DNA from: Bacteroidales bacterium Bact_22
GTDB taxonomy: Bacteria; Bacteroidota; Bacteroidia; Bacteroidales; F082
Reading direction: 5' to 3'
Assembly: GCA_001603665.1 (NCBI GenBank)
Contig: LUZN01000034.1
Location: forward strand, 27-64,026
Length of the DNA: 64,000 nt
Below the pieces are notes generated by a model. The model had not been told where the DNA came from. It worked only from the letters and a program-made list of their open reading frames with translations, and ran no database searches. Shown one piece after another: positions 26,764 to 33,961 of this stretch (positions within the stretch are counted from its first letter, which is position 1; every line of letters begins with the position of its first letter). Made by a program: the position numbers and the translations under genes.

Positions 26764-27960
26764 TTAGTTTAATGTGTATTCGTTGGTATCTTTCATTCCT
26801 GATTTACCCAAGAAAGCCTTCAGGTTACCGTGCACCTTCAAGGTCTTACCCAGATTCTCCGGATGATCTTTCAGGTTGATTTCACGGATGCCTGACGCGG
26901 CATTACTCGGCAGATAAACGACGACGCAGTTGTTGATGTCGCGCTCTTCGGCTTTATCAGCCAGAATGATGTTTGTCATATTCTCGTTATAGGTGAAATC
27001 AGGCCCCCATGAGATCTGCGAATCGGTTGTGATCGAACCGCTAGAAATATTGGCTGAACCCACGATATAACCTCTGATCCACATGTCGTTTTCACCTTGA
27101 TGTTCAATACCAGCAACAATGTTAAACGGATCGTTTTCGGTGCCTGTTCCAGTAGGCTGGACTGGCGGCTCAGGTGTTGCTTCACAAGGGTCATTCTCCA
27201 TCTGAACCTCAGAGATGGTGCGGATGGTAAACTGCCATGCATCGCCGGTGCTGTAATATGTAAGAATGCCGATGATAGAGCCATTGCCCTGAGGCAGCTG
27301 TCTCTTGGCGAAACTGGCATAGTTACTGGTTCTCACGATGACTTTTGAATCTTGAAGGATGCAGTTTTCATCGTATTGGTTCAATGTGTACTGGCCATAA
27401 GCATCTTCCAAAGCATATGTATTGACGCGGTCAGCGGCTGCAAACTCCACATGGTTGAACTTCACCAGACGGCATCTGAAGCTTGTGTTGATCTGCAAAG
27501 TGTTAATCTCGACGGGATCGATGAACTTTCCGTTGGCAAGGATGGTCACGTTCTTAGGCTCGAGGTCCTGAATCTGAGGCGTGCCGCTATATTCCGACAA
27601 TGTAGCGCCTTTCAGGTAAACACGCACCGAATCGCCGATACGCAGACCGCTGGTGCTCTTCATATAGAGCTCGATGGCTTTGTCGCCGTCCTGGATAAAC
27701 GAGGCTTTATAAAGGTTTCCCGATGTCTCGTCATCAGTGACGATACCATAGACAGAGGCGTCCTCAGTAAACTGATGTGTGCCTTCAACCTGCTGCATGT
27801 AAAGCAAGGTGTCGATGGTGTAGACATGACCGACAGGAAGTTCAAAATTGACATTAGGCGTCGGATAGTTATTCTTCCTCTTGTTCTTATCGATGCACGA
27901 TGTCATCACGATCATCGCGATAAGAACTAATACGCCGTATTTTTTTATTGACTTAAACAT
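26764..27960 (-). CDS. Surface lipoprotein with OB-fold-like N-module and second shared C-module (DUF5689/DUF6359-like by memory)
   Basis: 398 aa with lipobox VMTSC. A clear paralogue of the N-terminal and central modules of the adjacent 737-aa lipoprotein. Confidence 0.55.
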   Translation of the reverse strand: MFKSIKKYGVLVLIAMIVMTSCIDKNKRKNNYPTPNVNFELPVGHVYTIDTLLYMQQVEGTHQFTEDASVYGIVTDDETSGNLYKASFIQDGDKAIELYMKSTSGLRIGDSVRVYLKGATLSEYSGTPQIQDLEPKNVTILANGKFIDPVEINTLQINTSFRCRLVKFNHVEFAAADRVNTYALEDAYGQYTLNQYDENCILQDSKVIVRTSNYASFAKRQLPQGNGSIIGILTYYSTGDAWQFTIRTISEVQMENDPCEATPEPPVQPTGTGTENDPFNIVAGIEHQGENDMWIRGYIVGSANISSGSITTDSQISWGPDFTYNENMTNIILADKAEERDINNCVVVYLPSNAASGIREINLKDHPENLGKTLKVHGNLKAFLGKSGMKDTNEYTLN

Positions 27961-27987
27961 ATCTCTAATATTTTGATTATCAATAAT

Positions 27988-30183
27988 TTATTCACTAATA
28001 ATAACATTTCTCACTTCCCAAGTAGCCGATGCGCCGTCGATGCTCAGATATTTGAAAGCTATGCGGCATGTAGCGGTCTTGAATGCCTCCGGAATGGTAA
28101 TCCTGCCCGAGCTAACCCAAGCCCAGCCTGTTGTTGCGTGAACCACACCCGTCAGCTCCATCCACTGCACATCGTTAGGATTCTGACCTTCAGCGTAATT
28201 GTTGGTCACCCAAACAGTGTAATATCCTTCATTAACACCAACGTTGATGCTGCCCGCCGGACCTCTTGTGTGTTCGAATGTCAAGGCAGGACTGCTACTT
28301 GCGCTCAAATCGATTTCAGGACTGATGAACCAGTCTTCGTTGGCGTATGAAGTGTTGTTTTCAAAGCCCGACATCTGTGCACCGTAGTTTGCATGGGCTG
28401 AATCGAAATGCCAGACCTGCGTGCCTGCAACGCTGTAAGCTGTAAAGGTGTTAAAGCTAGCCTGCGATGTCAATGTTTGATTGAAATACTCAGTTCCGCC
28501 ACCGCCCGGCTCGATACCATAGCTGTTACCGTTGATCTCTGCATAAGTCACGTTCTTGACAGCAGCGACCTGGAAATATTTCTCCAAGGTACCATAAATG
28601 AGCACCTCCTGTTTGTAATTGCCTGGATTGTCGGCCAGATTAAGTCCATCACGCACGGCGCCTGCAGGCAACTGGATCGGGATGCACTCGTCAGCAGTTG
28701 TTGGGTCGACGTTCGACGACAGGATGATATTTGTTTTTACATCTCCGGCCGCACTTGTAAACACATATACATAATCTGCATCGACAAAGCCTACAATATA
28801 GTCTTTCACCCAGTATTTGTTACCGTCAGATGTCTGTGTGTTCATCGTGATGACATCCTGCGCGGTGTAAGGATTTTCGCGTGTTCCGTCGCCTGTCAGA
28901 GTGCCGCCTCCGCCACCACCGGCTTCGCCTTCCATGACAGCGATGCTCTTGATTTCGATGGTACGCGACTGCGTTGTCGACGACACGAACTTAATGGCGA
29001 ATGTCACCGTCTGTCCGATGTATTCGTCAAGACTAATCTCTTTATCCAAGAAATCGTTCCAACCTGCTGAGTTTTCAAATGTAACATTCAGATCTGTCCA
29101 GTTGGCGTTGGTTGGATCATCGCCATATTCATAATCAGCTGAGATTTGAGCTGTCACGTCTTTATCAGGACCGGTATATTGTGCGACATAATTCACTACA
29201 GCCTTGGCATGCTCTACATCAGCGATATGCACCGGTGATGAAATCAGCCAGTCTTCATTCTCATAGAAAGTATTGCCGACTTTACCTTTCATCACAGCTG
29301 TCGAATAGTCGATAGTCCAAACCTGATCGCCGACCACGCTGAAGGTTGTATAAGTGCCAAATGACGATGTAAACACCTGATTATAAGGCATTTCCATAAT
29401 ATCGCCGCCACCACCGCATCTGACATCATTCATCTTAACATCCGATGTGTTACGGATGAGCATCTGCCATGTTGTGTTGTAAACCGATGCAATAGCCGTC
29501 AGTGTTCCTCTTCCTTCTGGAAGCGGTTCGGCTGCAAAGCTGGCGTATCCACTGGTTCTCACGATGATACCCTCGCCAGAGCAAGTCACGAGATTTCTGT
29601 TTGTGTTGTTCTGACCCTCGGCGTATGTCAAGCCTTCATATGGCTCAAATTGCGCGTCGCTGATCTTCACGAGGTCGCAAAGATGCTTGCCGGCATTGAT
29701 ATCTTCGATAGTGGTGCTTATAGGACGAACCTTATCGTCGCAGCCTCTTTCGTAGATCACGATAAGCTTGTTGACATCGTGTTCCTGAACCTGAATCTGC
29801 GGAAGTTTGCTGTATTCCGAGATGATTGATCCATAGAGTTTATAACCGATATGGTCGCCGGTTTTGACGTTGAAGTCGTCGCTGCCGCCTTCGCTCGAGC
29901 CTTTTCTGTAAACAGCGATACATTTGCCGTCTTCACCTCTGAGATAGAAGGTACGATAGATGTTGCCACCTGTCTCGTCAGCGATAACATAACCTTTCAC
30001 TATGGCGTTCTTCTGAGAATCCTGGTTGAATGTGAAGGCTCCGTTGGCCAACGAGTCGAGAATCTGACCTACCGACCACACGTTATCCTCAGGAAATGAA
30101 GTAATATCCGGCTGGTCTAAGTTCTTCTTACATGAGACGAACACCAGCATTACACCTATTAATAATATAGCGAGTTTTTTCAT
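27988..30183 (-). CDS. Large modular surface lipoprotein (OB-fold-like module, two MAM/choice-of-anchor-J-like modules, DUF6359-like module)
   Basis: About 731 aa from the ATG at 30183 (the ORF-track start at 30201 is a TTG), with lipobox VFVSC. Modules are separated by oligo-Gly linkers. Confidence 0.55.
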   Translation of the reverse strand: MKKLAILLIGVMLVFVSCKKNLDQPDITSFPEDNVWSVGQILDSLANGAFTFNQDSQKNAIVKGYVIADETGGNIYRTFYLRGEDGKCIAVYRKGSSEGGSDDFNVKTGDHIGYKLYGSIISEYSKLPQIQVQEHDVNKLIVIYERGCDDKVRPISTTIEDINAGKHLCDLVKISDAQFEPYEGLTYAEGQNNTNRNLVTCSGEGIIVRTSGYASFAAEPLPEGRGTLTAIASVYNTTWQMLIRNTSDVKMNDVRCGGGGDIMEMPYNQVFTSSFGTYTTFSVVGDQVWTIDYSTAVMKGKVGNTFYENEDWLISSPVHIADVEHAKAVVNYVAQYTGPDKDVTAQISADYEYGDDPTNANWTDLNVTFENSAGWNDFLDKEISLDEYIGQTVTFAIKFVSSTTQSRTIEIKSIAVMEGEAGGGGGGTLTGDGTRENPYTAQDVITMNTQTSDGNKYWVKDYIVGFVDADYVYVFTSAAGDVKTNIILSSNVDPTTADECIPIQLPAGAVRDGLNLADNPGNYKQEVLIYGTLEKYFQVAAVKNVTYAEINGNSYGIEPGGGGTEYFNQTLTSQASFNTFTAYSVAGTQVWHFDSAHANYGAQMSGFENNTSYANEDWFISPEIDLSASSSPALTFEHTRGPAGSINVGVNEGYYTVWVTNNYAEGQNPNDVQWMELTGVVHATTGWAWVSSGRITIPEAFKTATCRIAFKYLSIDGASATWEVRNVIISE

Positions 30184-32877: not shown

Positions 32878-32902
32878 TACCCAAATTCATTCTTTTAAAA
32901 TT

Positions 32903-33961
32903 ATGTTGAGAAAATTGAACATTTTGGCTGTCGTGATGTTGTTTTTCATCACCTCATTGAGCGCCCAACAGCAGTACAAGATGGGTATCGTGGGTTTTTA
33001 TAACCTTGAAAACCTTTACGACACGATTAACGACCCGCATAAGAACGACGAGGAATTTCTGCCTATGGGCAAAAATGCTTGGAACACCGAGAAATACACC
33101 ACAAAACTGCACAACATGGCCTACGCCATCTCGACCATCGGCGCCGACAAGAGCGACAAATACTATTCGCCCGACGGAGTGATGGTGCTCGGCGTCTCGG
33201 AGATTGAGAACCGCCAAGTGCTCGAGGACTTGGTGAAACAGCCGGAGATCGCCGACCGCAACTACCAGATTGTCCATTACGACTCGCCCGACCGTCGTGG
33301 TGTCGACGTGGCATTGCTCTACAACCCGAAATATTTCAAGGTTACCAACCATAAATCATACCGCCTCAATGTGCCCGGACAGCCTAACTTCATCTCGCGT
33401 GATCAGCTAGTTGTTACTGGCATTCTCGACGATGAAGAGTTCAGCTTTATCGTGATGCACTGGCCTTCACGTTACGGCGGCGAGAAACGCTCACTCCCCG
33501 GACGTATGGCAGCAGCAGGCCTATGCCGTCATATTGCCGACTCGATTCTGGCTGCAAAACCTAATGCGAAGATCGTGATGATGGGCGACTACAACGACTA
33601 CCCGACCAACAAGAGTATCATCGAGGGACTGCGTGCCAAGGGACGCGTCGAAGATATGAAAGGCGACGATTTCTTCAACCCGATGTGGAAGATGCATAAA
33701 AACGGCGAAGGCACCAACTACTACCGCGATGTGAAAGGCGTGCTCGACCAATGCATCATCACACCGGCATTGCTCAAAGATGAAAACGATCCATTTGCGA
33801 CATACCAGCTGTTCAAGCCGATGGTGCATTCGAAAGAATATCTCAAACAGCACGACGGCCGCTACAACGGCTATCCGTGGCGTTCGTTCGCGGGTGGTGT
33901 GTGGCTGGCTGGTTATTCCGACCACTTCCCAGTGTACCTTATTTTGCTGAAGAAAATATAA
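32903..33961 (+). CDS. Secreted endonuclease/exonuclease/phosphatase (EEP) family protein, probable extracellular nuclease
   Basis: Signal peptide MLRKLNILAVVMLFFITSLSAQ. Motifs GFYNLENLYD, HWPSR, GDYND and SDHFPV are typical of the EEP fold. Confidence 0.7.
   Translation: MLRKLNILAVVMLFFITSLSAQQQYKMGIVGFYNLENLYDTINDPHKNDEEFLPMGKNAWNTEKYTTKLHNMAYAISTIGADKSDKYYSPDGVMVLGVSEIENRQVLEDLVKQPEIADRNYQIVHYDSPDRRGVDVALLYNPKYFKVTNHKSYRLNVPGQPNFISRDQLVVTGILDDEEFSFIVMHWPSRYGGEKRSLPGRMAAAGLCRHIADSILAAKPNAKIVMMGDYNDYPTNKSIIEGLRAKGRVEDMKGDDFFNPMWKMHKNGEGTNYYRDVKGVLDQCIITPALLKDENDPFATYQLFKPMVHSKEYLKQHDGRYNGYPWRSFAGGVWLAGYSDHFPVYLILLKKI

Follow-up and report, generated by a model that had tools for sequence, protein, structure and literature searches.

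The closest described relatives of the locus reported here are the ddbABCDEF locus of Bacteroides thetaiotaomicron and a locus of Riemerella anatipestifer. The present locus comprises four genes in a 64,000-nucleotide stretch (the window) of contig LUZN01000034.1 from Bacteroidales bacterium Bact_22, an uncultured rumen-type Bacteroidales bacterium. In B. thetaiotaomicron, DdbA and DdbF, exported with type II (lipoprotein) signal peptides (SPII), and DdbB, exported with a type I signal peptide (SPI), are DNases in vitro (Sharan et al., PNAS 2025, PMC12478041). The TonB-dependent transporter of the locus is DdbC; its predicted cap is the DUF5689 protein DdbD, for which a likeness to the DNA-binding HIN domain of p202 was also predicted, and the remaining gene product, DdbE, is an SPII protein of unknown function (PMC12478041). 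After deletion of ddbABCDEF, cells no longer depleted DNA, nor did they make uracil and xanthine from it (PMC12478041). Four ddb subtypes (Bt1, Bt2, Pv1 and Pv2) were delimited, membership requiring over 50% identity to a reference DdbC at over 75% coverage; SPII nucleases occur in Bt1 and are not universal, Pv2 being without a secreted nuclease, and ddbBCD was related by its authors to a Riemerella locus (PMC12478041). The ddb locus overlaps BT3558-BT3564 of strain VPI-5482, where the BT3560-3563 operon, encoding a TonB-dependent receptor, a hypothetical protein and two lipoprotein nucleases of the endonuclease/exonuclease/phosphatase (EEP) fold, had been linked with DNase activity outside the cell (Béchon et al., PNAS 2022, PMC8851478).

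Natural transformation of R. anatipestifer was abolished by transposon insertions in RA0C_RS04915, insertions that silenced the downstream RA0C_RS04920 as well (Huang et al. 2021, PMC8459023). The annotation of RA0C_RS04915 is that of a carboxypeptidase-regulatory-like domain protein, and RA0C_RS04920 carries DUF5689, choice-of-anchor J and DUF5017 (PMC8459023). A ddbB-like nuclease is encoded beside them, and passage of DNA through the outer membrane during natural transformation was the role proposed for the barrel and the lipoprotein. Deletions of tonB in R. anatipestifer lowered the transformation frequency (PMC8383284).

Judged by sequence, structure models and analogy with these loci, the window locus is very probably a minimal system of the ddbB-ddbC-ddbD type, serving surface capture of nucleic acids and their passage through the outer membrane. 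An earlier note on the same DNA had proposed a capture and uptake system for DNA or oligonucleotides resembling a polysaccharide utilization locus (PUL), and this reading was supported by the folds, the active site, synteny, the recruitment of nucleases and the two studied systems (PMC12478041, PMC8459023). Its further statement that no system of such architecture had been characterised in Bacteroidales is out of date, the ddb and Riemerella loci having been characterised in 2021-2025. No new category is opened, the architecture being already known; a recently described DNA-uptake module of Bacteroidota also occurs, in stripped-down form, in uncultured rumen-type Bacteroidales. Its local peculiarities are a barrel without CarboxypepD_reg, two paralogous lipoproteins and no surface nuclease. 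The four open reading frames (ORFs) were confirmed as follows, in the order barrel, lipoprotein A, lipoprotein B on the minus strand, with the EEP gene divergent on the plus strand:

32903-33961, plus strand: EEP nuclease gene, 352 aa from the second ATG, type I signal peptide
30203-32764, minus strand: barrel gene, 853 aa, outer-membrane barrel and plug of predicted TonB-dependent-transporter fold
27988-30183, minus strand: lipoprotein A gene, 731 aa from the ATG beginning MKKLAILL, SPII, Cys18
26764-27960, minus strand: lipoprotein B gene, 398 aa, SPII, Cys22

The gaps between barrel and lipoprotein A (19 nt, 30184-30202) and between lipoproteins A and B (27 nt, 27961-27987) agreed with the earlier note, as did all gene coordinates and the 138-nt AT-rich divergent spacer in the ORF list, and each peptide string that it had quoted was present in the translations. 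Sequence searches of the PDB with all four proteins returned no useful match. The families that had been predicted for the locus (DUF5689, DUF6359, choice-of-anchor J and Exo_endo_phos) were all found by profile search.

The barrel had been called a TonB-dependent receptor, which was not upheld by sequence profile and was upheld by fold. The Pfam Plug profile (PF07715) matched below threshold (E = 0.014; 16.4 bits vs. a cutoff of 23.9), PF00593 (TonB_dep_Rec) gave no match in Pfam, and no NCBIfam model matched; Plug passed its threshold in some barrel homologues. Because profile support above threshold was absent, the barrel was modelled and its fold compared. An AlphaFold2 (AF2) model built with 35 homologues had a mean predicted local distance difference test (pLDDT) of 70.8 and a predicted template modelling score (pTM) of 0.73. 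All 50 best Foldseek matches of this model in the PDB were TonB-dependent transporters, with about 800 aligned columns each, and included PqqU (E = 6.6e-24), YncD, Fiu, FecA, FhuA and OprC. The model is that of a TonB-dependent-transporter fold, a large beta-barrel with an N-terminal plug, and the plug motif FRIRAYDS...VMINGVMMND...NWGGLND is nearly invariant across the barrel family. CarboxypepD_reg (PF13620) did not match the window barrel, and the alignment showed a segment of about 70 aa to be absent from its N-terminus; the domain was found in the homologous barrels L067, L073, L074 and L079 (Riemerella-type, Alistipes and Bacteroides-MAG members; MAG, metagenome-assembled genome). By sequence and model the barrel is of the DdbC / RA0C_RS04915 kind without the CarboxypepD_reg N-terminal domain. 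Homologues that match it over the full length bear CarboxypepD_reg and Plug and share the annotation of RA0C_RS04915. An exhaustive HMMER search with the barrel among 1.84 billion representatives returned 2011 clusters (50% identity) at E <= 1e-3, and by sequence the family appears to form a small group of its own, apart from mainstream TonB-dependent transporters.

The two lipoproteins are paralogous over both of the modules noted earlier (BLASTP; N-module E = 4e-28 with 32% identity over 273 aa; second module E = 9e-09). Pfam assigned DUF5689 (PF18942) to lipoprotein A (E = 3.4e-40) and lipoprotein B (E = 1.9e-38), and DUF6359 to both (E = 5e-28 and 2e-25). Lipoprotein A is ordered DUF5689, choice-of-anchor J, DUF6359, choice-of-anchor J, and lipoprotein B is ordered DUF5689, DUF6359:

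29437-30030, minus strand: lipoprotein A DUF5689 module, aa 52-249, predicted tandem oligonucleotide/oligosaccharide-binding (OB) fold through homology to lipoprotein B
28909-29400, minus strand: lipoprotein A choice-of-anchor-J-like module 1, about aa 262-425; the NF052645 match spans residues 154-416
28534-28851, minus strand: lipoprotein A DUF6359 module, aa 445-550, with Gly-rich linkers on both sides (Pfam E = 5.1e-28)
27997-28458, minus strand: lipoprotein A choice-of-anchor-J module 2, aa 576-729 (NCBIfam NF038128, E = 1.9e-13)
27205-27822, minus strand: lipoprotein B DUF5689 module, aa 47-252, two OB-like beta-barrels (Pfam, AF2, Foldseek)
26770-27114, minus strand: lipoprotein B DUF6359 module, aa 283-397, a third OB-like barrel (Pfam, AF2)

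The two choice-of-anchor-J copies of lipoprotein A, both beta-sandwich modules, are 29% identical and match each other at E = 1e-17; the lipobox of this protein is VFVSC. The AF2 model of lipoprotein B (pLDDT 89) contained three small beta-barrels, and its best Foldseek matches in the PDB were CTC1 of CST, RPA70, baculovirus LEF-3, Teb1, RMI1/2 and the anticodon-binding OB domain of LysRS, a result that is a fold assignment only, with low whole-chain TM-scores from the differing domain arrangement. The model resolves DUF5689 into two OB folds and DUF6359 into a single one, and the lipoproteins are predicted to bind DNA. The first module had been likened to the OB-fold module of ExeM/NucH-type nucleases: the structure model bore out the OB fold, and the family link failed, the NCBIfam ExeM_NucH model giving no match at E <= 0.01 with any of the four proteins. 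Nucleases of the ExeM/NucH type join accessory domains that bind nucleic acid to an EEP catalytic domain, whereas in the window locus one protein bears the EEP domain and others bear the OB modules. The earlier view that the lipoproteins are not SusD-like stands, since neither matched SusD/RagB in Pfam or NCBIfam; nor was there a match to the SusD, RagB or SusC families anywhere at the locus. Against NF052645 (cutoff 475 bits), lipoprotein A scored 171.8 bits and lipoprotein B 57.9 bits, placing both as homologous to this curated subfamily and outside it.

The EEP protein belongs to Exo_endo_phos_3 (PF19580; Pfam E = 4.7e-121, residues 30-349). Residues N34, E36, E100, E102, H186, D229, N231, D282, D340 and H341 were each conserved in at least 97% of 63 syntenic homologues, and on this sequence evidence the DNase-I-type catalytic set is complete and the predicted active site intact. 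The N-terminus (MLRKLNILAVVMLFFITSLSA/QQQ) is a type I signal peptide without a Cys or lipobox, and a lipobox was absent in 57 of 62 syntenic EEP homologues. Two other large secreted proteins of the window, cysteine-peptidase-like (8360-10930, plus strand) and gingipain-like (58855-62229, minus strand), bear C-terminal sorting sequences of the type IX secretion system (T9SS) in their translations, so that the organism apparently has this system. The EEP nuclease is without such a tail, for which there is no room because the Pfam domain spans residues 30-349. With a type I signal peptide and neither lipobox nor T9SS tail, the protein would, on the reasoning used for DdbB, more probably stay in the periplasm than leave the cell, and by analogy it is probably a DdbB-like periplasmic DNase. 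The earlier description of a secreted nuclease was thus correct as to signal peptide and EEP fold and doubtful as to release. The translated ORFs on either side of the locus showed no second nuclease gene, and hence no SPII nuclease of the DdbA/DdbF type.

Synteny was examined in the best 80 of 594 relatives (one genome per GTDB species scanned), and the six-frame ORFs of these 80 loci were searched with profiles built for this analysis. The loci came from Bacteroidales, Flavobacteriales, Chitinophagales, Saprospiraceae, Sphingobacteriia and Cytophagales, with barrel identity from 87% down to 34%. The nearest were in water-buffalo and red-deer MAGs (barrel identity 81-87%; the nearest MAG is RGIG7852, contig JAFZKP010000017), followed by a Candidatus Limimorpha barrel at 68%; another Limimorpha protein was at 76%. 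A DUF5689-family lipoprotein was encoded directly 3' of the barrel in 73 of the 74 loci with enough flank, and two such lipoproteins followed the barrel in 25 of these 74. The EEP gene adjoined the barrel gene in 52 of 69 loci (45 divergent, 7 co-directional) and was at most 10 kb away in 7 more. The linkage of the barrel, DUF5689 lipoprotein and EEP genes, which the earlier note had proposed to check by gene neighbourhood, therefore holds across the phylum. Retention of this triad in loci from at least six orders supports a nucleic-acid substrate. Loci of the window clade (L001-L004) have two lipoproteins, and the next relatives (L005-L009) have one of 870-906 aa matching both, which suggests, at the sequence level, a recent duplication, split or fusion.

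Other nucleases were found beside the same core. Among clustered flanking ORFs, Endonuclease I with a T9SS sorting domain adjoined the barrel-DUF5689 core in 5 loci, and another gene family adjoined it in 9 loci, its scanned representative being a BACON-Endonuclease_NS lipoprotein. Lipoproteins of 1070-1160 aa with DUF5689 also occurred in related loci, and that of L077 adds BACON and weak OB-fold matches. Nuclease and large-lipoprotein ORFs of this kind are:

L041, 11047-12135
L077, 7102-8418
L077, 2261-5692
L071, 2600-5809

Because three unrelated nuclease families (PF19580, Endonuclease I and Endonuclease_NS) join the same core, a nucleic-acid substrate is strongly supported, and this convergence is evidence on the substrate that does not rest on published genetics. 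In addition, a database protein of 1158 aa (P0483) joins a PF19580 EEP domain (29-339) to a barrel (362-1157), an apparent Rosetta-stone fusion or else a gene-calling artefact in a lineage with co-directional genes.

In common with ddb, the window locus has a DUF5689 protein encoded after a barrel of the TonB-dependent-transporter type, beside the barrel a nuclease gene whose product carries a type I signal peptide, PUL-like logic without SusD, a host in the order Bacteroidales, and an OB-type DNA-binding fold predicted for the DUF5689 partner (compare DdbD with p202 HIN). Unlike the B. thetaiotaomicron locus, it has no equivalents of the SPII surface nucleases DdbA and DdbF. It also differs from ddb in that the EEP gene is divergent instead of in line with the transporter genes, in having two paralogous DUF5689 lipoproteins that also bear DUF6359 and choice-of-anchor-J modules, and in a barrel without the CarboxypepD_reg N-terminal domain. 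The sole homologue from a MAG labelled Bacteroides sp. (L073, among the best 80 of 594) was 34% identical to the window barrel, and the window locus is possibly a separate ddb subtype.

Shared with Riemerella are the three-part core, in which a nuclease and a barrel accompany a lipoprotein bearing both DUF5689 and choice-of-anchor J, and the barrel family, linked through Flavobacteriaceae members. Flavobacteriaceae loci (Tenacibaculum, Polaribacter) had the architecture reported for Riemerella: their barrels carried CarboxypepD_reg and Plug, and were full-length homologues of the window barrel (34-36% identity) in the same synteny. Their lipoproteins carried DUF5689 and choice-of-anchor J (DUF5017 in one) and aligned over the full length of NF052645, the 'M949_1556 family lipoprotein', named for a Riemerella gene. 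Unlike Riemerella, the window locus has no CarboxypepD_reg on its barrel, its lipoproteins carry DUF6359 and fall well under the NF052645 cutoff, and there is a second lipoprotein. Without a surface nuclease, it resembles the Riemerella core more closely than the six-gene Bacteroides locus. With SusC/SusD PULs the locus shares an outer-membrane barrel of predicted TonB-dependent-transporter fold, surface lipoproteins, a degradative enzyme and Bacteroidota-type promoters. Unlike them, it has no SusD/RagB lipoprotein and no SusC signature in NCBIfam or Pfam, the partners are OB-fold lipoproteins, and the enzyme is a nuclease instead of a glycoside hydrolase.

In the proposed mechanism, the two lipid-anchored OB-fold paralogues would hold extracellular DNA at the cell surface, and at least one of them would cap the 853-aa plug-and-barrel transporter, forming a complex energised through TonB as in the homologues. 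DNA or its fragments would then pass through the barrel into the periplasm, again by comparison with homologues, where the DNase-I-type EEP nuclease would cut it, if its location and activity are those of DdbB. The transporter operon and the nuclease gene would be transcribed divergently from the shared AT-rich spacer, with one TAnnTTTG box each way. By analogy with ddbABCDEF of B. thetaiotaomicron, the role in a gut or rumen Bacteroidales bacterium is most likely the scavenging of DNA-derived nucleotides and nucleobases.

Several observations weigh against a nucleic-acid capture and uptake system of this type. Residues 12-80 of the barrel had pLDDT below 50, so the plug region is poorly predicted, and no canonical TonB box was evident in the barrel, the only candidate at the expected position being the semi-conserved LPTIIMID. 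Both lipoproteins are acidic (mature isoelectric point, pI, 4.45 and 4.79; each domain 4.1-5.1), which is atypical of non-specific DNA binders. The strict export signal C(x/xx)(D/E)(D/E) of PMC12478041 was absent after either lipoprotein Cys (CKKNLDQPD and CIDKNKRK), and surface exposure of the lipoproteins is therefore a prediction. With neither a lipoprotein nuclease nor a T9SS nuclease seen in the sequence of the locus, extracellular cutting of large DNA would be hard to place. Finally, the likeness to DdbC, DdbD and DdbB rests on Pfam families, synteny and the Flavobacteriaceae homologues; cluster members of 20 homologues were MAG, Alistipes, Lutibacter and Flavobacteriaceae entries only, with no reference DdbC accession among them.

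The same machinery might take up DNA through the outer membrane as a step of natural transformation, on the pattern of R. anatipestifer, which is possible though on the unlikely side. Long DNA would enter through the barrel, and the periplasmic EEP protein would trim it or make single strands for ComEC. The three-gene Riemerella arrangement, with no surface nuclease, fits the window locus better than the six-gene B. thetaiotaomicron locus (PMC8459023; PMC12478041), the core is kept in Flavobacteriales, Chitinophagales, Saprospiraceae and others far outside the gut, and Riemerella cannot be naturally transformed without this core. However, the CarboxypepD_reg domain of RA0C_RS04915 is absent from the window barrel, lipoprotein A reached 172 bits against the NF052645 cutoff of 475, and genes resembling comEC, dprA, comF or comEA were not recognised among the ORF translations read in the 64-kb window. 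That this subtype imports long DNA intact, as the outer-membrane competence step in uncultured rumen and gut Bacteroidales, is improbable; if true, the EEP-barrel-DUF5689 triad would be a general Bacteroidota counterpart of the DNA-uptake machine of type IV pilus and secretin. Natural transformability by this route is not currently known in Bacteroidales.

Remodelling of the extracellular DNA of the biofilm matrix or cell surface as the main function, as reported for the BT3563 nuclease, is very unlikely. The BT3560-3563 operon, with its TonB-dependent receptor, hypothetical protein and two EEP lipoprotein nucleases, is a precedent for it, whereas the BT3563 phenotype was credited to an extracellular lipoprotein DNase and the sole nuclease of the window locus has a type I signal peptide. 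It is extremely unlikely that the barrel and lipoproteins serve to import a different anionic or non-nucleic-acid polymer, with the EEP protein a phosphatase or phospholipase. In favour of this, oligosaccharides and proteins are further ligands of OB folds, both lipoproteins have an acidic pI, the EEP enzymes include phosphatases and sphingomyelinases, and BACON and carbohydrate-binding-module-like domains occur in neighbour proteins of some related loci; against these stand the co-localisation of three unrelated nuclease families with the core in different lineages, the dominance of nucleic-acid-binding OB proteins among the Foldseek matches, and the DNA phenotypes of the homologous loci (PMC12478041, PMC8459023). 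The uptake and scavenging of DNA is the preferred reading, and its recognition aids the annotation of thousands of genes labelled 'hypothetical', 'DUF5689' or 'carboxypeptidase regulatory-like' and the choice of variants for tests of feeding vs. transformation.

The divergent control region had been said to carry two exact TAnnTTTG boxes, and both were found, each directed at its gene:

32765-32902, no strand: divergent spacer, 138 nt, 17.4% guanine plus cytosine (GC) vs. 48.4% in the whole window
32784-32791, minus strand: TAAATTTG, putative Bacteroidota -7-type box facing the barrel gene, 19 nt short of its ATG; consensus match only
32870-32877, plus strand: TATATTTG, putative -7-type box facing the EEP gene, 25 nt short of the ATG at 32903; consensus match only

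The motif TAnnTTTG was enriched across the window (50 matches vs. 33 expected). Because the box TATATTTG lies inside the longer ORF starting at 32855, position 32903 is favoured as the true start of the EEP gene. A sigma-70-type promoter scan was made and is uninformative for Bacteroidota.

Past lipoprotein B, the same strand encodes a family 2 (GT2) glycosyltransferase (26009-26746, minus strand), a dihydroorotase-like amidohydrolase (24651-26051, minus strand) and a MORN-repeat lipoprotein (24213-24647, minus strand). Only 17 nt separate lipoprotein B from the GT2 gene, and this interval holds no terminator-like site; in the terminator scan, sites were no commoner than in shuffled sequence and none was 3' of lipoprotein B. 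The GT2 and amidohydrolase pair was found in 15 related loci, mostly directly 3' of the lipoproteins, and this continuation could reflect co-transcription or merely a conserved housekeeping context. A defence system or mobile element was considered and dropped, given the flat composition, the housekeeping neighbours and the genomic position kept in relatives.

On the other side, an 840-aa ORF beside the EEP gene (34011-36533, minus strand) has the look of a fusion of MurF-like ligase and alanine racemase; it is kept in L001-L005 and appears unrelated to the locus. Reading of the translations further indicated a kinase-like domain fused to deoxycytidine monophosphate (dCMP) deaminase (37669-38706, minus strand) and a LOG/PpnN-type nucleotide nucleosidase (38760-39401, minus strand). 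The deaminating enzymes acting downstream were left unidentified in the ddb paper (PMC12478041). The dCMP deaminase fusion and LOG/PpnN-type genes are 3.7-5.4 kb from the locus, and their synteny is limited to the closest relatives (L001-L003). Their proximity to the locus may be coincidence; from their sequences, the two products together could convert dCMP to uracil.

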